NCBI GenBank assembly: GCA_030692375.1
Contig: JAUYCD010000109.1
Coordinates: 9,221-73,220 of the forward strand
Length of the DNA: 64,000 bases
DNA from: Candidatus Latescibacter sp.
Lineage (GTDB): Bacteria; Latescibacterota; Latescibacteria; Latescibacterales; Latescibacteraceae
Direction of reading: 5' to 3'
Each line of letters begins with the position of its first letter. The first letter of the stretch is position 1. The notes beneath the pieces are model-generated. The model searched no databases. It was not told the origin of the DNA and was given only the letters and a program-made list of their open reading frames with translations. Positions 4,724 to 60,672 of the stretch are shown here, piece after piece. The position numbers were made by a program, and so were the translations under genes.

Positions 4724-6115
4724 TTATGCCTCCGATGCCGGAATGACGGTGCTTTTCTTTTGGACAGCCAAACTCAGAAGGGTGTAGAGTATCACTGCGA
4801 TGAACCATCCCGGCAGTCCCTTGAAGAAGATCTCGACGGGAAGAAAAAAGACAACCAGGAGTGAAATGCCCCAGGCAGCCGCCGCCGGCCAACTGAACAG
4901 GAGGCCGGTCAACTCTGCATAGTTCCGCTTCAACCCAAGTTTCGGAAGAATCCAGTAATCCGCGAAAACTACCGCGCCCATGGGCATGAGCAGGAGGCCG
5001 TAGAGAGCCACGAAATCGAGCAGCCGCATGACCAGCGCCGGGAACAGGGCGGCAGTTGTAGTAACCATCCCGGCGGCAAGAGTGACTTTCCAGCGTTTCC
5101 AGTTGGGTGTTGCCACCTGCAGGGCGAGACCGGCGCGGTAGAGTGTCGGATTCGCAGTTGTCCAACTGGCCAGCACCACACAAACCACCCCGGCTGCACC
5201 CGCACCCATCCAGGCGATGGGACCGGGCGCCACCGAGCCAAGCGCCGCGGCGCAGAGGATCCCCGAAGCGATCCAGGCGGTATAGTGGCCGAGGAACATG
5301 CCGAAAGCGCTCGCGAAACCATACTGCCATTTTTTTGCATACCGCAGGACGGAGAGATCGGACATCCCGATATGCATTGCCATGTTGCAGAACCAGGCGA
5401 AGAACATCACATGCCAGAAGGTGAATTTCGACTGCCCGGCAAGAGGCACCCCGGTCCAGATTTTCTCGTTCGCCACCCGCCAGAAATCACCGAACGATGT
5501 GCAGCCCAGGGTCGGGAGCACTGCTAAAGCGGCTGCCACGAACACTAGGAACATCCAGGGCGAGCATACCGACCCGAAATGGGCCAGCTTTTCAAATCCG
5601 AGTATGGCAAGAAGGGTAAAAAGCGCTCCGAGAATGAAGATAATCACTACCCAGCTCACGCTGGCCGGGTAAAGGTCGGTAAGCTGCGGCATAGGCATGT
5701 GGAAAGGCAGTCCTATCGCGGTCGCCGCTACCGAGATCATCGCTCCTGCAAGAAAACAGAACATGAGCGCGTTCACAATGCTGTAGACGAACGTCAGGTA
5801 CGGCCCGGTTATTTTCCGTAAGAGCCAGTAGAGGGTGAGCCGCGTCCTGACCGCGATGGGCGCGCAGAGAAACGCCCAACTCAAAACGGCGAGGATGTTC
5901 CCCACCAGGAGTCCCAGGAAAAGGTCGATCGCAGCGACCCCGTGGGCGACAAACAGCGGGCCGATGATAAATTCCGTTCCGGCGACATGTTCCCCCGCAT
6001 ACATCCCGATGAAGCTTCCGGCCCCCTGGAGCTTGGCCTCGGTGACCGGCTCACGGTCGAATTCGTAGAGGGCGTCGAGACGTTCGGTGACTGTGGTTTT
6101 TTCAGGTGCGGACAT
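4724..6115 (-). CDS. NCS1/purine-cytosine-permease-family transporter, 12 TM; possibly the sugar importer of the rhamnose locus
   Basis: Polytopic membrane protein. The N-terminal region ..QGAGSFIGMYAGEHVAGTEFIIGPLF.. resembles CodB/NCS1 TM1. The start was trimmed to MSAPEK (6115) because the upstream extension runs through a repeat element. Confidence 0.5.
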   Translation of the reverse strand: MSAPEKTTVTERLDALYEFDREPVTEAKLQGAGSFIGMYAGEHVAGTEFIIGPLFVAHGVAAIDLFLGLLVGNILAVLSWAFLCAPIAVRTRLTLYWLLRKITGPYLTFVYSIVNALMFCFLAGAMISVAATAIGLPFHMPMPQLTDLYPASVSWVVIIFILGALFTLLAILGFEKLAHFGSVCSPWMFLVFVAAALAVLPTLGCTSFGDFWRVANEKIWTGVPLAGQSKFTFWHVMFFAWFCNMAMHIGMSDLSVLRYAKKWQYGFASAFGMFLGHYTAWIASGILCAAALGSVAPGPIAWMGAGAAGVVCVVLASWTTANPTLYRAGLALQVATPNWKRWKVTLAAGMVTTTAALFPALVMRLLDFVALYGLLLMPMGAVVFADYWILPKLGLKRNYAELTGLLFSWPAAAAWGISLLVVFFLPVEIFFKGLPGWFIAVILYTLLSLAVQKKSTVIPASEA

Positions 6116-6198
6116 ATACTCCCCTTGGAAAAAAGATCCCCCTGTCGCCAAAAGCAGCGACATCCCCCTTGTCGAAGGGGGATAAAAGAAAAAAAATA

Positions 6199-6254
6199 GA
6201 TGCCGAAACGGTATCATCGTTCCCGCGAAGAGGCAACAAGTTCGGCATGACATG
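6199..6254. repeat. Palindromic element of the gccgaaac/gttcggc family; a second copy lies at 4417-4470
   Basis: atagatgccgaaacgg..cgttcccgcgaag..ggcaacaagttcggcatgacatgtt is nearly identical at both sites. Confidence 0.7.
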
Positions 6255-6262
6255 TTCTGCCA

Positions 6263-6587
6263 TTACTCAATTAATGATGGTACGGCAAAAAGTCACAGTG
6301 AATGTTATTTTCAGAATGACAAGACAGTATTATATGTTTTATTGTGCATACTATACTATTGAAAACTCACCCCCTGACCCCCTCTCTTGAAAATAGAGGG
6401 GGAGAACCATCTGCTTCTTAAAATACGTATTATCAACAAAATAACTAACTCAAAGTCGTACCCCCTCTCTTATTAAGAGAGGGGATCAAGGGGTGAGTTA
6501 TCTCCAAAAAATGAGATTGTATAGTGTTCTAATGTCTTGATGAATATTTTCTGAATTCTTTTTTGCCGTATCATCAATTAATGATAG
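6263..6587. repeat. MITE-like element: imperfect 28-bp terminal inverted repeats (ttactcaattaatgatggtacggcaaaaagt / cttttttgccgtatcatcaattaatgatag) enclosing GC-rich hairpin repeats
   Basis: TIRs read at 6263-6292 and 6559-6587. Inside are ccccctctcttgaaaatagaggggg and ccctctcttattaagagagggg hairpins flanked by cacccc/ggggtgag. Confidence 0.5.
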
Positions 6588-8043: not shown

Positions 8044-8316
8044 ATGGGTAAATATGAAAAGCTATTGATAAAAATCTTACGAGGGACATATGATGCCAAT
8101 ATTTCTTTTTCAAACATATGCCAGTTATTGAGAAAGTTTGGATTTGATGAACGAACTCAAGGTGACCATCATATTTTCACCAAGGATGGCGCTGAAGAAA
8201 TACTGAACTTGCAATCCAAAGAATCAAAAGCTAAGTTATATCAGGTAAAGCAAGTTCGTAATTTCATACTTAAATATAAATTGAAATTGGAGGAAAAAGA
8301 TGATGAGCAGATATGA
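8044..8316 (+). CDS. hicA: HicA-like mRNA interferase toxin (YcfA family)
   Basis: ..LLRKFGFDERTQGDHHIFTKDG.. matches the HicA G.HH core. It is immediately followed by an overlapping HicB gene. The locus is low GC. Confidence 0.5.
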   Translation: MGKYEKLLIKILRGTYDANISFSNICQLLRKFGFDERTQGDHHIFTKDGAEEILNLQSKESKAKLYQVKQVRNFILKYKLKLEEKDDEQI

Positions 8317-8512
8317 AATAATCGTTTATTGGAGCGAGGAAGACAAGGCATTTATTGCTGAAGTCCCTGAATTGCCTGGATGTATGGCAGATGGAGAGAC
8401 ATATCAAAAAGCCATTTCAAACGCTGAAGTTATTATCCAGGAGTGGATTGAAACTGCCAAGGAATTAGGTCGTGCAATTCCTCAACCCAAAGGACGATTG
8501 ATGTATGCCTAA
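8300..8512 (+). CDS. hicB: HicB-family antitoxin (UPF0150)
   Basis: YEIIVYWSEEDKAFIAEVPELPGCMADGETYQKAISNAEVIIQEWIETAKELGRAIPQP is a canonical HicB N-domain. It overlaps hicA by 17 nt. Confidence 0.75.
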   Translation: MMSRYEIIVYWSEEDKAFIAEVPELPGCMADGETYQKAISNAEVIIQEWIETAKELGRAIPQPKGRLMYA

Positions 8513-16359: not shown

Positions 16360-16734
16360 ATGTCCGAATTACGATTAGGCCGGGTGCAGATGAGAATCAT
16401 GCAGGTTCTCTGGAAAAAACAGAGGGCGACTGCGCAGGAAATTACCGATGAGATAAATAAGCTGGAGCCGATAAAACACAGCACAGTTCAGACCTTTCTC
16501 AGGGTGCTTGCGAAAAAGAAGATTGTAGCATTTGATGTTGAGAAACGCACATTCGTGTATTACCCGATGGCAAACAGCGAAAGTGTCACACAGAGCGCGG
16601 TCAGAAATTTTATCGACACCACCTTTTCCGGCTCGCTTGAAGGTATGATCTCCTACATCATCAAAAATGTTGACATATCTCCCGAACAGTTGGAAAAAAT
16701 CAAAAAATTACTGGATGAAGAGGAAAAATTCTGA
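16360..16734 (+). CDS. BlaI/MecI/CopY-family winged-helix transcriptional repressor
   Basis: MSELRLGRVQMRIMQVLWKKQRATAQEITDEINK..HSTVQTFLRVLAKKKIV..; about 120 aa; directly followed by an M56 peptidase gene with a 1-nt overlap. Confidence 0.8.
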   Translation: MSELRLGRVQMRIMQVLWKKQRATAQEITDEINKLEPIKHSTVQTFLRVLAKKKIVAFDVEKRTFVYYPMANSESVTQSAVRNFIDTTFSGSLEGMISYIIKNVDISPEQLEKIKKLLDEEEKF

Positions 16735-30066: not shown

Positions 30067-30589
30067 CAGGAGCCAGAATCCAGAATCATGAAGCAAACAA
30101 ATGAGAATCTAATACTATACATTCTATCGATATCGCGGTTATGAAATGGAACGGTCTCCCGCAAAGAGTTTTGAAGATTTGCTGGTCTGGCAGAAATCAC
30201 ACCGGCTGGTTTTGGGTATATATAGCTTCAGCGAATCATTCCCAAATAAGGAAATGTACGGACTGATATCTCAGATAAGGCGCGCAGCGGTTTCCGTTCC
30301 TGCGAATATTGCCGAAGGTTTCAAAAAGCGGGGCTGTAACGATAAGGTTCGCTTCATGAACATAGCACAAGGTTCTTTGGAAGAATGTCGGTACTATCTT
30401 ATTCTGGCGAAAGATCTAGGATATGGGGACAGCATAAATTTGCTTAAACAGTTGGAAGAGGTGAGTAGACTCCTTGATTCATATTCCCGAACAATTAGTG
30501 CACAAAATTCCTGATATTATTGGAAGAAGAATATTCTGCTGTACTAATATATTTTCGCATTTATTCTGGATTCTGGATTCTGGCTCCTG
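30067..30589. mobile_element. Cassette of about 520 bp bounded by 21-bp perfect inverted repeats (caggagccagaatccagaatc) that carries the four-helix-bundle gene
   Basis: Left inverted repeat at 30067-30087 and right inverted repeat (as reverse complement) at 30569-30589. It sits between nadB and guaA. Confidence 0.6.
30146..30514 (+). CDS. Four-helix-bundle protein (23S rRNA intervening-sequence protein family, TIGR02436-like)
   Basis: ..FEDLLVWQKSHRLVLGIYSF..ISQIRRAAVSVPANIAEGF.R....F..IAQGSLEE..YL.LA.DLGY. Confidence 0.75.
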   Translation: MERSPAKSFEDLLVWQKSHRLVLGIYSFSESFPNKEMYGLISQIRRAAVSVPANIAEGFKKRGCNDKVRFMNIAQGSLEECRYYLILAKDLGYGDSINLLKQLEEVSRLLDSYSRTISAQNS

Positions 30590-30610: not shown

Positions 30611-32416
30611 ATGCTTAAAACAAACAAAATCACCATTCTCGATTTCGGCGGCCAGTACGCCCACCTTATCACCAAGCGGATCCGCCGCCTGGGAGTGTAC
30701 GCGGATATAAAGCATCCCGATGTGAGCCTGGAGGAATTGGGGCATCCCGGCGGCATCATTCTCTCCGGCGGGCCATCGAGCGTGTATGCAGAGAACGCGC
30801 CGCCCTTCAACCGTAAGATTCTCGGGACCGGCATTCCCATTCTGGGCTTGTGTTACGGCATGCAGCTTATCGCCTATTTCCTTGGCGGTGAGGTGCGAAG
30901 GCTCGCGAAGCGGGAGTACGGCCGGGCGGAGCTGGAAGTGACCGGGTACTCCCCCCTGTTCGAGGGACTTTCGCGCCGGGAGCTTGTGTGGATGAGTCAC
31001 GGCGATTCGGTGGCGAGTATCCCTGAAGGTTATCGGAGCATCGGAAAAACTTCCGACTGCCCCTTTGCCGCAGTCAGCAATGAGGAAGAGAAGATTTACG
31101 GTTTGCAGTTCCATCCCGAAGTCACCGATACCCCTTCCGGCAGCCGGATTCTGGAAAATTTCATCCGCATCTGCGGCCTTGAGCGGAACTGGTCGATGGA
31201 AGGGTATATCGAGGAGAAGATGAAAGAAATCCGGGAGAAGGTAGGCAGCCGTAATGTATTTCTCCTGGTGTCGGGAGGGGTAGATTCCACCGTGACCTTC
31301 ATGTTACTCAACCGTGCGCTGGGCGAAGACAGGGTGATCGGTATCCACATTGATAACGGGTTCATGCGGAAGAACGAAACCGCCGAAGTGAAGGAAGCCC
31401 TCGGCCGGCTCGGATTCCACAATCTCATTGTTGTGGACCGCACGGAAGATTTCCTTCGGGCGGTTGAAGGTCTGACCGACCCGCAGGAAAAGCGGAATGC
31501 TATCGGCGATGAATTCATGTATGTGAAAGACCGCGAGCTCGAGGCGCTGCACCTTGATCCCGACCGGTGGCTGCTTGGACAGGGAACGCTCTATCCGGAC
31601 ATAATCGAATCCGGAGGCAGCCGTCACGCCGATATAATCAAGACCCATCACAACCGCACAGATATGATCAAGAAAATGGTGGCGCGCGGTCAGGTGATAG
31701 AGCCGCTGGATCAGCTCTACAAGGACGAGGTGCGCGAAGTCGGCGAAAAGCTCGGACTGCCTCACGAGCTGGTCTGGCGTCATCCGTTCCCCGGACCGGG
31801 AATCGGAGTCCGGGTTTTGTGCGACCGTGGAGGAGTTTCCTCAGAGGATTTCAAAGAAATCCGCAGCCGGGTGAGAAAAAAAGCAAAACTTGCCGGGTAT
31901 GAGGCGATGATCCTGCCGGTGAAGAGTGTAGGAGTGCAGGGAGACTGCCGCACTTATGCCCATCCCGCCGCGCTGGACGGCCCGCCGGACTGGGAAAAAC
32001 TCGAGTTCCTCTCCACCGATATCACGAACGAGATTACCGGAGTGAACCGCGTGGTCCTCAAAATCGGCGGCGGCGCCCTGAAACCGCTTGTGAGCAAGGC
32101 TGCCACTCTTACCCGCGACCGACTCGACCTCCTCCGCGAGGCCGATAACCAGGCGATGCAGGTGCTCCGCGAGCATGGATTGTATGCAGAGATTTTTCAG
32201 ATGCCGGTGGTTCTTCTGCCCATATCGTCCGATGGTGTGAAAGAGAGCATAGTCATACGGCCGCTCCGGTCATCGGATGTGATGACCGCAAAGTTCTACC
32301 GGATGCCGGTCGGGAGTGTAGAGGAGATCGCAAGGAGGATTCTTGCGCTGGGGGTCATCGAGTATGTATTTTACGACCTCACCAACAAACCGCCGGGAAC
32401 GTTCGAGTGGGAATGA
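30611..32416 (+). CDS. guaA: GMP synthase (glutamine-hydrolysing)
   Basis: Class-I GATase N-terminus (ILDFGGQYAHLI..LGLCYGMQL..) followed by an ATP-pyrophosphatase SGGVDSTV P-loop and a C-terminal dimerisation domain. Confidence 0.9.
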   Translation: MLKTNKITILDFGGQYAHLITKRIRRLGVYADIKHPDVSLEELGHPGGIILSGGPSSVYAENAPPFNRKILGTGIPILGLCYGMQLIAYFLGGEVRRLAKREYGRAELEVTGYSPLFEGLSRRELVWMSHGDSVASIPEGYRSIGKTSDCPFAAVSNEEEKIYGLQFHPEVTDTPSGSRILENFIRICGLERNWSMEGYIEEKMKEIREKVGSRNVFLLVSGGVDSTVTFMLLNRALGEDRVIGIHIDNGFMRKNETAEVKEALGRLGFHNLIVVDRTEDFLRAVEGLTDPQEKRNAIGDEFMYVKDRELEALHLDPDRWLLGQGTLYPDIIESGGSRHADIIKTHHNRTDMIKKMVARGQVIEPLDQLYKDEVREVGEKLGLPHELVWRHPFPGPGIGVRVLCDRGGVSSEDFKEIRSRVRKKAKLAGYEAMILPVKSVGVQGDCRTYAHPAALDGPPDWEKLEFLSTDITNEITGVNRVVLKIGGGALKPLVSKAATLTRDRLDLLREADNQAMQVLREHGLYAEIFQMPVVLLPISSDGVKESIVIRPLRSSDVMTAKFYRMPVGSVEEIARRILALGVIEYVFYDLTNKPPGTFEWE

Positions 32417-32425
32417 GGAGGATAT

Positions 32426-32902
32426 ATGGAAACAACTGTGGATTTTGAAAAGAGAGATTTGTTTGTAGAAAGAGTTCACCAACTCATTTCCATGATGCAG
32501 AAATGGGTAACATATACCGGACTATATACTATCGTCTCAAATATTATAGTTGAGGAAACTATTCCGGGGAAATATACTATTGAAATGCTTGAAATTAATG
32601 ATAAAGATGGAAAACTTGTTGCAAAAGTAATCCCTGTCGGTGCGTATGTGATTGCAGCAGAAGGGCGTGTTGATATCAAAGGCTACCTGGGAAAAGAAAG
32701 TGTGGTATTCCTTAAATACGGCGGGCCTTCAATTGTTTCCAAAGTTAATGGAGAGGTTGACAGGGTATCGAGTCTTTACGATGGTATTACTGCCGAAGGA
32801 TGGTTTTGGATAGAAGATAAGCGGATGAGAAGGGCTTATCCATTTGATGAAAAGATATTTTTAGAACTAATAACCAGGGTGAGCGATTATGAGTTCCGTT
32901 GA
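32426..32902 (+). CDS. Hypothetical protein (158 aa), first gene of an AT-rich two-gene cassette
   Basis: ORF with an AGGAGGATAT RBS; no recognisable family. Confidence 0.5.
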   Translation: METTVDFEKRDLFVERVHQLISMMQKWVTYTGLYTIVSNIIVEETIPGKYTIEMLEINDKDGKLVAKVIPVGAYVIAAEGRVDIKGYLGKESVVFLKYGGPSIVSKVNGEVDRVSSLYDGITAEGWFWIEDKRMRRAYPFDEKIFLELITRVSDYEFR

Positions 32903-33446
32903 TCTTCTCCTGCCCATTTGGGAATCCTATCGTTTGCTTAAAGATTCTTCTGTTGTAACGAAGCGAGCACTGAACAGAGAATGGGAATCGCCTGAAGAGC
33001 AGAAATACTTCTTCGATGGTACCGAATTTCGCAGCGATACAAAATCTGAAGCCGCTGAGTCTGTAGATAGAAGTTTACAATCGATTGAAGATTTGATGAT
33101 TTTATCGTTATATGCGACTTTTGAGCGGTATATCATCGAATGCCTCCAGGAGAAGGGTGAATCGATAAAAGGCAAGAGACCTGAATGGTTATCCGATAAG
33201 TTGTATTTACGTTTTGAAAACAGCATCGAAAGAGGAAGTCTCGACGAAGTTTTTTCCTGGTTTAAAAATGCTCAGGTTATTGATAGCCAGCTTTTTGAGG
33301 ATTTAAAAAAGACAAAGATGTACCGAGATTGGATCGCTCATAGAAATCCAAAAAGAAAGCCTCAAGAAATAAGCGATCCTTCAACTGTTTATAGTATCCT
33401 TTCAACGGCGATTGAAAAAATCGATTCGGTTTTTCATATTCATTAA
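32889..33446 (+). CDS. Hypothetical protein (185 aa) with a candidate HEPN Rx4H motif (YRDWIAHRNPK)
   Basis: ATGA-type start overlap with the upstream gene; helical protein; the motif was read from the translation. Confidence 0.5.
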   Translation: MSSVDLLLPIWESYRLLKDSSVVTKRALNREWESPEEQKYFFDGTEFRSDTKSEAAESVDRSLQSIEDLMILSLYATFERYIIECLQEKGESIKGKRPEWLSDKLYLRFENSIERGSLDEVFSWFKNAQVIDSQLFEDLKKTKMYRDWIAHRNPKRKPQEISDPSTVYSILSTAIEKIDSVFHIH

Positions 33447-33465: not shown

Positions 33466-34257
33466 ATGAATATTGTTGTTTGCATAAAACAGGTTCCTGA
33501 CACCATGGATGTACGGATAGACCCGAAAACCAATACCCTGATCCGGGACGGAGTACCCTCGATCCTCAACCCGTTCGATGAATTCGCCATCGAAGAGGGC
33601 TTACGGATACGGGAAAAGCTTGGGGGGAAAGTGACCGCGGTCTCCATGGGGCCTCCCCAGGCGGCGGAGATTCTCAGGACCGCTCTAGCCATGGGAGTAG
33701 ATGCAGTGGTGCTGCTTTCCGATCGGGCGTTTGCCGGGTCGGATACTCTTGCGACTTCTTACACGCTCTCGCAAGGCATCGAAAAAATCGGGAATGTCGA
33801 TCTTGTAATCACCGGGAAACAGGCCATTGACGGCGACACCGCCCAGGTGGGTCCGGGGATTGCCTCCCGTCTCGGATTCACACAGCTTACCTATGTATCA
33901 AAAGTGGAAAATGTGGATATTGTGAACCGAACCATTACGGTGGAGCGCCTCCTGGATGATGGCCGTGAGCGTGTCGAGGGGAAACTCCCGGCTCTCCTGA
34001 CTGTGGTTAAAGACATCAATGTGCCCCGCCAGCCGTCGATTCTGAAGATGAAAAAAGCCCGCAGCGCCGAGATTCCCGTCTGGAAGGCGCAGGATATCGA
34101 GGCCGATCCTCAGAAAATCGGGCAGAACGGCTCGCCCACCTGGGTGGAGAGGATCTTTTCCCCCGAACAGAAAACCGGCGGTGAGATATTTCAGGGCGAA
34201 TCGAGCGAGGTGGCGGGAAGGCTGGCTGAACTTTTAATGGAAATGATGGCAAAATAG
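33466..34257 (+). CDS. etfB: Electron transfer flavoprotein beta subunit (FixA-type)
   Basis: MNIVVCIKQVPDT.. and ..VITGKQAIDGDTAQVGP.., the second-FAD/NADH-site signature reported for bifurcating Etfs. Confidence 0.85.
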   Translation: MNIVVCIKQVPDTMDVRIDPKTNTLIRDGVPSILNPFDEFAIEEGLRIREKLGGKVTAVSMGPPQAAEILRTALAMGVDAVVLLSDRAFAGSDTLATSYTLSQGIEKIGNVDLVITGKQAIDGDTAQVGPGIASRLGFTQLTYVSKVENVDIVNRTITVERLLDDGRERVEGKLPALLTVVKDINVPRQPSILKMKKARSAEIPVWKAQDIEADPQKIGQNGSPTWVERIFSPEQKTGGEIFQGESSEVAGRLAELLMEMMAK

Positions 34258-60191: not shown

Positions 60192-60394
60192 GCAATTTCG
60201 TTATTTCAGTCTTTGCATCGGGGATATTGGTTGATACAATTCTCCAAACGATTTCGAGGTCTATGCCGAAATAGGCATGAATGGCAATATTCCTCAGGCC
60301 GATCATTTTTTTCCATACTTTCAATGTATTCCCCGATCATGCTCATTGACTCAAGAATATCTTCAATGAACAGCCGGTAATCTCGTTTTGTCAT
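60172..60394 (-). pseudogene. Decayed HepT (DUF86, HEPN) toxin: N-terminus in one frame, RNxxxHxY C-terminus in another, about 35 codons missing
   Basis: Frame A: MTKRDYRLFIEDILESMSMIGEYIE.. Frame B: ..LRNIAIHAYFGIDLEIVWRIVSTNIPDAKTEITKLLDSF. Confidence 0.7.
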
Positions 60395-60672
60395 ACCATA
60401 CGCACTTCTTCCAGTATTCTACTCCTCAATTGCCGTTTCAATGCGTTTTTTGTTACTATATCCACCGGCTTTTCGAGTATTTCTTCAAGATAATCCTTCA
60501 AATCGAAAAGTTCCCATCCGACCGGTTCCGAAAATTCGACAAGAATATCCACATCACTTCCCCGGGTCTCCTCATTGCGGGCATATGACCCGAAAACACC
60601 GATGCACTTCACATGAAAACGTGCAGCGAGGACGTCTTTATGGGTTTTTAGTATGGATTCGATTTCTAGCAT
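60391..60672 (-). CDS. MntA-type nucleotidyltransferase antitoxin (intact)
   Basis: ..CIGVFGSYARNEETRGSDVDILVEF..; it overlaps the HepT remnant by 4 nt. Confidence 0.8.
   Translation of the reverse strand: MLEIESILKTHKDVLAARFHVKCIGVFGSYARNEETRGSDVDILVEFSEPVGWELFDLKDYLEEILEKPVDIVTKNALKRQLRSRILEEVRMV

Follow-up and report, generated by a model that had tools for sequence, protein, structure and literature searches.

What are two small, AT-rich genes doing in the middle of a run of housekeeping genes? The question is raised by a 1-kb cassette lodged between guaA and etfB in a 64-kb stretch of DNA (the window) from Candidatus Latescibacter sp. (assembly GCA_030692375.1, contig JAUYCD010000109.1, positions 9,221 to 73,220), where two overlapping genes, here called A and B, encode proteins of 158 and 185 amino acids (aa). 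An initial annotation made from the sequence alone had described them as an inserted pair of no recognisable family, the second protein carrying an R-x4-H pattern like the HEPN catalytic motif, and had proposed a small defence or toxin–antitoxin-like module. Architectural and evolutionary evidence leads us to read the pair, with moderate confidence, as a mobile module of the toxin–antitoxin or abortive-infection type, in which B would be the ribonuclease (RNase) effector and A its neutralising partner. Loci other than that of the window are labelled L001 and so on, and are contigs found by profile or protein scans. The features of the cassette, in window positions, are as follows.

32417..32421, + strand: Shine-Dalgarno (SD) sequence GGAGG of gene A, beginning 1 nucleotide (nt) past the guaA stop codon
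32426..32902, + strand: gene A, 158 aa, ATG start; acidic product (isoelectric point, pI, 5.2), predicted partner or neutraliser of B
32889..32902, + strand: two-frame A/B overlap of 14 nt, with the B ATG embedded in the A codons ...D-Y-E-F-R-stop (GATTATGAGTTCCGTTGA); predicted translational-coupling junction
32889..33446, + strand: gene B, 185 aa; all-helical product with a HEPN fold, predicted RNase effector (toxin)
33120..33128, + strand: F78-E79-R80 codons of B, within the ATFER segment, marked by residue conservation in the B alignments
33324..33341, + strand: Rx4H codons R146-D-W-I-A-H151 of B, predicted catalytic site (R146 at 33324-33326, H151 at 33339-33341)

The two overlapping frames proposed at the outset are confirmed, and their overlap, counted from the B ATG to the end of the A stop codon, is refined to 14 nt, not the usual 4-nt ATGA. 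The cassette is tightly packed between its neighbours: guaA occupies 30611-32416 (stop codon 32414-32416), the A ATG lies 9 nt downstream of that stop, and the etfB ATG, at 33466, lies 19 nt past the stop of B. The low guanine-plus-cytosine (GC) content that had first set the genes apart also holds, since A and B together have a GC of 0.385 against a window mean of 0.516 (standard deviation 0.045 in 1-kb windows) and form the lowest-GC stretch of 1021 nt in the window (a GC this low is reached by 0.02% of windows of that length). GC at third codon positions (GC3) is 0.33 and 0.37 in A and B, and 0.67-0.69 in guaA and etfA. Both are real genes under purifying selection, with ratios of nonsynonymous to synonymous substitution rates (dN/dS) of 0.26 for A and 0.09 for B in the comparison of the window with locus L001 (guaA 85% identical), where guaA and etfA give 0.08-0.09. 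In the same comparison (window 32426-33446 against L001 4282-5302) the synonymous rate (dS) of A and B is about 0.53-0.57, about half that of guaA and etfA (about 1.06-1.17); codon bias of AT-rich genes may be the cause, or the lineages may have exchanged the cassette at a later time. A scan of the window pair for promoters and terminators gave no signal above chance, and the spacer between guaA and A is too short for a separate promoter; the pair is probably transcribed along with guaA by read-through.

Fold and motif place protein B in the HEPN superfamily, within a family missed by the current curated models. B has the all-alpha, up-and-down helical bundle common to solved HEPN domains, and the solved structures listed for it are HepT SO_3166 (5yep_B), TTHA0636 (1wwp), 7ae2_A (the HEPN toxin of an MNT–HEPN pair), YutE (1ylm) and HI0074 (1jog). 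Four profiles of the pair's proteins, run against the sequences of the PDB, gave chance matches only (E near 1), with no solved structure related to B in sequence. The Rx4H motif reported near the C-terminus lies in YRDWIAHRNPKRK (residues 145-157), and its arginine and histidine are conserved. In an alignment of 12 close homologs R146, H151, N153, P154 and the ATFER segment (A76-R80) are invariant, while in a wider sample of 48 sequences E79 is the sole invariant residue and F78, Y145, R146, H151 and L171 are at least 90% conserved. A distant variant (L106) keeps the motif as RHHVAH. The wider sample was drawn from 606 full-length cluster representatives (about 170-200 aa) found at E<=1e-3 in a profile search of 1.84 billion such representatives, which gave 380 at E<=1e-10.

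Both proteins were searched against the curated libraries Pfam, NCBIfam, PADLOC (PADLOC-DB 2.0) and PHROGs, and the initial statement that they fall in no recognisable family is upheld at curated thresholds. The best curated match of B is HepT-like and sub-threshold (Pfam PF01934, 13.3 bits against a cut-off of 23.5; NCBIfam NF047751, 13.1 against 60), with alignments in both libraries that cover the R-x4-H region and end on the motif. The window protein has no match at E<=1 in PADLOC-DB 2.0, nor to the Pfam families HEPN_RiboL-PSP, HEPN_MAE_28990 and HEPN_Apea. When the 48 sampled members were scanned singly, they matched HEPN families only, all below threshold: MAE_28990 in 11 of 48, RiboL-PSP in 8, Apea in 8 and DUF4145 in 5. 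The best E-values of family members are 7.7e-5 for RiboL-PSP (PF18735), 5.5e-4 for MAE_28990 (PF18737) and 7.9e-4 for Apea (PF18739). The PF18735 score listed for one member is 16.9 bits against a gathering threshold of 28.4, and no tested member reaches any of the thresholds; a further member, P0011, carries the UniRef name 'RiboL-PSP-HEPN domain'.

Assignment of B to HepT itself was considered and rejected, as B fails the thresholds, has no MNT partner and lacks the tyrosine that is AMPylated in HepT within RX4HXY. B reads R146-DWIA-H151-R152-N153 in this place, and the asparagine at the tyrosine position is the one found invariant among the close homologs; B is also longer than HepT, with extra N-terminal helices. 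That HEPN proteins act as endoribonucleases is established knowledge of the family (Anantharaman et al. 2013, PMC3710099), and B is accordingly predicted to be an endoribonuclease and toxin with R146 and H151 as its putative catalytic residues.

Protein A has no match in Pfam, NCBIfam or PADLOC (E<=1) or in PHROGs. Its sequence is 100% identical to that of a protein from a metagenome-assembled Candidatus Latescibacter sp. genome. A first search found six close relatives, and a profile enriched with partners from B neighbourhoods brought the number to at least 81, all of them 'hypothetical' and none with Pfam domains, mostly from Burkholderiaceae and spread over the genera Paraburkholderia, Caballeronia, Trinickia, Burkholderia, Cupriavidus and Bordetella. 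A structure model built with 38 sequences (predicted local distance difference test, pLDDT, 88.9; predicted template modelling score, pTM, 0.83) shows a long N-terminal helix (4-28), about nine beta strands and a C-terminal helix (142-153), and by this model the fold of A is a frataxin-like alpha/beta sandwich. Frataxin/CyaY and the complex I subunit Nqo15 share it. The likeness is one of fold only: homology to frataxin was rejected on an hhalign probability of 3% against E. coli CyaY and the absence of a match to Pfam Frataxin_Cyay. A is also about 50 residues longer than frataxin, with more strands, and its context is always B, never iron–sulfur (Fe-S) cluster assembly genes. A fold search with A in the viral database BFVD returned nothing at E<=0.001. 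The beta-rich domain 'MAE_18760-NTD1' described by Anantharaman et al. may be a relative of A.

Conservation in A is concentrated in a set of invariant residues (W27, L33, E44, P70, A78, G80, R81, G86, W126, W128, E130, F145, L148 and D154) and in a nearly invariant C-terminal V-S-D-Y-E-F. The statistics of overlap and pI rest on 58 unique intact A–B pairs, and in 53 of these A is acidic (median pI 5.3). No match to NTP_transf or Polbeta was found in A and 46 homologs, and none to DNA-binding domains of the helix-turn-helix (HTH), ribbon-helix-helix (RHH) or AbrB type in A or its homologs.

The linkage of the two genes is obligate. The B-profile search led to 80 metagenome loci, 64 of them informative for pairing in that they hold a full-length B and at least 520 nt upstream, and A lies directly upstream on the same strand in all 64. 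The same arrangement is seen in a Burkholderia glumae plasmid, a Cupriavidus pauculus plasmid, Paraburkholderia, Thiomargarita, the chromosome of Bordetella sp. N, an unassigned metagenome-assembled genome (MAG) and a distant shortened variant. Copies of B without A are either contig-edge cases or N-terminally truncated remnants with no intact open reading frame (ORF), namely the following, each spanning profile positions 67-173 with no A upstream.

L085 2037-2357: truncated B remnant
L087 4001-4321: truncated B remnant
L088 2019-2339: truncated B remnant

The junction between the genes is conserved as well. In 53 of the 58 unique pairs, from unrelated taxa, the overlap is either 11 nt (34 pairs) or 14 nt (19 pairs), and in these pairs the B ATG sits within the D-Y/H-E-F codons of A (gaY-YAT-GAr-TTy), so that one stretch of DNA encodes both the conserved C-terminus of A and the conserved N-terminus of B (M-S/N-x-x-N-P-L). 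A canonical SD 4-mer precedes the B ATG in 21% of pairs, compared with 14% of background windows, and mean anti-SD pairing ahead of B is somewhat stronger than background. The arrangement is compatible with a translation of B that would be driven mostly by ribosomes terminating at the end of A and then reinitiating. Pairwise distances of A and of B are strongly correlated (Pearson 0.905, with none of 2000 Mantel permutations as high), which indicates that the two proteins are inherited together and diverge together. No conserved third gene was found beside the pair, and the heterogeneous neighbours rule out a three-component system.

How the pair came to lie between guaA and etfB can be read from related genomes. 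The window GuaA was scanned against one genome per species, which gave six Latescibacterota loci, and the gene order nadB-guaA-etfB-etfA-glyA is conserved among the loci of this phylum. L013 (which is the contig of L001), L002 and L003 carry the pair, as does a contig of the Joint Genome Institute (JGI), where A is 54% and B 52% identical to the window proteins. The pair is missing from the following junctions.

L015, Ca. Latescibacter anaerobius: guaA-etfB spacer of 42 nt
L017, Latescibacterota MAG: spacer of 173 nt
L016, MAG with Latescibacterota synteny, guaA 80% identical: spacer of 256 nt, no ORF
L014, Latescibacterota MAG: spacer of 580 nt, holding an unrelated 155-aa ORF

As four genomes have the same synteny and no pair, the pair is an insertion into a housekeeping stretch, as had been supposed. 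The sequence just before etfB (…aggaatcacYgcATG) is common to the window and L017, so the cassette replaced the spacer almost exactly. Neither terminal repeats nor a target-site duplication were found around the window cassette, and a transposon-like insertion is unsupported on that account. The pair entered the ancestor of one Latescibacterota subclade and has been retained since, and it is not lineage-wide housekeeping; housekeeping-like conservation throughout the lineage and the lack of a HEPN fold, which the initial annotation had named as counter-evidence, are thus the reverse of what is found. The ORF in the pair-less L014 spacer (5894-6361, + strand) has no Pfam match, and the guaA-etfB junction accepts different small genes in different lineages.

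Outside Latescibacterota the distribution of the pair is patchy and mobile across unrelated phyla. Four plasmid records carry it, three from Burkholderia glumae and one from Cupriavidus. The B. glumae pair adjoins an AbiTii gene, a Phd/PIN pair and an integrase; that of the unassigned MAG adjoins a TIR-domain gene and a transposase, and that of Thiomargarita lies near Fic and ADP-ribosylglycohydrolase genes. The single match in IMG/VR (L104, IMGVR_UViG_3300039452_000355) has the pair at 821-1853, 1.3 kb from a repressor.

L104 3207-3953, - strand: CI/LexA-like repressor (phrog_4, 4e-45)

Spots near a prophage CI-like repressor are typical for accessory and defence genes (morons). Tandem A–B pairs occur on some metagenome contigs, L061 (3562-4552 and 5828-6815, plus a B fragment at 2-127) and L095, which suggests either local duplication or an island that accumulates such modules. 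Some of 133 flanking ORFs match defence components, among them type III restriction–modification, Dsr1, PIN, AbiTii and AriA-, PtuA- or LmuB-like ATPases. In each of the 37 loci that offer 3 kb or more of flanking sequence, the GC of the pair is below that of its flanks, the mean difference being 6.3 points. The candidate toxin–antitoxin-like or defence-like module of the initial annotation therefore gains support from linkage, co-evolution, recurrence in unrelated phyla, plasmids and defence-type neighbours, while its function is a prediction.

The mechanism that we propose for such a module is as follows. B would be a HEPN endoribonuclease acting through R146 and H151, probably dimeric as other HEPN RNases are, and A would be a dedicated partner that binds B and keeps it inactive. 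Owing to the overlapping junction, A would be made first and in at least equal amount, and most translation of B would fall to ribosomes coming straight from the end of A, such that the toxin would never be made without its partner. The module may stabilise the DNA that carries it, or may free the RNase once A runs low or is displaced, as could happen in phage infection; an addiction role, a phage-defence role or both could follow. The layout is that of type II-like toxin–antitoxin systems, with two small, adjacent, co-directional genes, the partner upstream, tightly linked and mobile. An antitoxin-first order is found in MNT–HEPN and most type II dyads (PMC3710099), and the upstream position of A, which matches it, favours A as the antitoxin. 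The trait of DNA binding and autoregulation that marks type II antitoxins is missing, given that no HTH, RHH or AbrB match was found in A or its homologs and that the window holds no separate promoter region for the pair.

Several observations weigh against this proposal. A has no DNA-binding domain of the HTH or RHH type, unlike classic type II antitoxins, and is a well-folded protein with invariant polar residues (E44, R81, E130 and D154), a profile that could belong to an enzyme or a sensor as well. B is not basic (pI 5.25 in the window, with a near-neutral family median of 6.85), which is atypical of RNA-binding toxins. No PADLOC model matches A or B, and many of the neighbourhoods consist of plain housekeeping genes, many of the 133 flanking ORFs being ordinary metabolic genes. 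Within one Latescibacterota subclade the pair is fixed at one locus, with a dN/dS of B like that of guaA, and this is compatible with a domesticated function.

The missing DNA-binding domain, the invariant polar residues of A and the non-basic B make a sensor or activator role for A the main rival, although an unlikely one in our estimation. Here A would be a sensor, adaptor or co-effector that detects a phage protein or small molecule through a polar pocket and activates the RNase of B, which would be inert alone. A is well folded rather than disordered, with W27, E44, R81, W126, W128, E130 and D154 invariant, and has no DNA-binding domain; a subset of neighbours are defence genes, and the pair adjoins a prophage repressor at a typical defence-moron site. 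Against this, coupling with the partner first and the decay of B where A is missing are easier to reconcile with neutralisation than with activation, A showed no known sensor domain, and no trigger is known. A related and rather doubtful possibility is that A is a ligand- or trigger-sensing, or enzymatic, switch working through E44, R81, E130, D154 and the tryptophan cluster to control an unclassified family of HEPN RNases. Were it so, A would represent a new mechanistic class of HEPN toxin control, present in several bacterial phyla and encoded in overlapping frames.

A domesticated role in the service of the host, as an RNA-processing or regulatory pair expressed together with guaA and etfBA and neither selfish nor defensive, is very improbable. 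The spacing of 9 nt from guaA to A and 19 nt from B to etfB with no promoter or terminator signal would suit such a role, as would the persistence of the pair at this locus in several lineages of Latescibacterota, with identities as low as about 52-54%, the low dN/dS of B (0.09, similar to guaA) and the metabolic genes that surround many loci elsewhere. Four Latescibacterota genomes of identical synteny nevertheless do without the pair, its neighbours are completely different in every other taxon, it occurs on plasmids and on a prophage-like contig, and its composition stays persistently foreign (GC3 of 0.33-0.37 against 0.67-0.69). Weakest of all is a reversed polarity that mirrors the first MNT–HEPN proposal, with A toxic or enzymatic and B a non-catalytic HEPN-like binding or regulatory subunit: A does have more invariant polar residues than expected of an antitoxin and non-catalytic HEPN subunits are known (PMC3710099), but the latter typically lose Rx4-6H (PMC3710099) whereas B keeps its arginine and histidine (invariant or at least 90% conserved) and E79, and A has a frataxin-like fold, matches no known toxin or enzyme family and stands in the upstream position that favours an antitoxin, so that we give this scarcely any credence.

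Returning to the preferred reading of B as effector and A as neutralising partner, the pair works like the HepT/MntA and RnlA/RnlB dyads, yet belongs to neither. In HepT/MntA systems of type VII (Shewanella SO_3166/SO_3165, 5yep; Aphanizomenon HEPN/MNT, 7ae2) the partner is an MNT protein, whereas here it is a frataxin-like sandwich with no NTP_transf match. RnlA/RnlB and LsoA/LsoB couple a HEPN RNase toxin to a folded protein antitoxin that does not bind DNA, and have both toxin–antitoxin and phage-defence roles (PMC8266594). The likeness of A and B to these lies in a HEPN toxin, here predicted, with a folded, non-DNA-binding partner. RnlA is large and multidomain and has its antitoxin downstream, the opposite of the A/B order, and A has no relation to RnlB in sequence or fold. 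The sub-threshold neighbours of B, HEPN_RiboL-PSP (PF18735), HEPN_MAE_28990 (PF18737) and HEPN_Apea (PF18739), were defined by Anantharaman et al. (2013, PMC3710099) as predicted RNases of conflict systems; the partners and fusions described for them are L-PSP, ParB, ParA/Soj, methylases and NTD domains (PMC3710099), none of which is found here, where A always stands instead. AbiV, which has an RNA antitoxin, and HEC-08, a DUF3644 HEPN protein, were also considered and set aside as unrelated to the pair in architecture.

The literature searched contains no description of the pair, no link between HEPN proteins and a frataxin-fold partner, and no mention of its accessions. What is new, then, is two unannotated protein families and a conserved two-frame junction; what is known is the type of module, a HEPN two-gene conflict system. 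Many toxin–antitoxin, abortive-infection and CRISPR-associated systems use HEPN RNases as effectors, and the ways in which these enzymes are restrained have proved mechanistically informative, as in AMPylation by MntA, binding by RnlB and the RNA antitoxin of AbiV. To our knowledge, and in the literature searched, the fold of A has not previously been linked to toxin control. With about 600 clusters at 50% identity for B and at least 81 homologs for A, both unannotated and strictly linked, the pair would add a family to PADLOC, DefenseFinder and TADB and improve the annotation of Burkholderia and Cupriavidus plasmids, and at 1 kb and two genes it is a compact and testable system.

A second variable slot lies on the other side of guaA, in the spacer that separates it from nadB. 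The window version of this spacer contains a low-GC gene for a four-helix bundle protein, listed below with other genes of the same stretch.

8044-8316 and 8300-8512, + strand: low-GC overlapping pair (GC 0.32 and 0.42) that looks like a HicAB module
16360-16734, + strand: low-GC gene for a BlaI/MecI-type repressor of 124 aa (Penicillinase_R, 3.1e-26)
30146-30514, + strand: low-GC gene for a '23S rRNA intervening sequence protein', a 122-aa four-helix bundle (PF05635, 4.7e-36), in the nadB-guaA spacer
60391-60672, - strand: MNT nucleotidyltransferase gene (PF01909, 3.2e-17)

The nadB-guaA spacer of L001 (2030-2407) and that of L002 contain a gene of the PDDEXK_3 nuclease family (PF13366, 2.9e-40), and in L014 and L015 it is 30-40 nt long with no gene. 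The guaA-etfB and nadB-guaA spacers are in this respect slots at which small mobile genes are swapped in the Latescibacter genome. In the pair at 8044-8512 the HicA-like toxin scores 23.2 bits, just under the Pfam cut-off of 27, and is followed by a HicB-like antitoxin (40.6 bits). The MNT gene is followed, at the position expected for HepT, by a 62-aa ORF (60206-60394) with no Pfam match, and may be an antitoxin with a decayed toxin.

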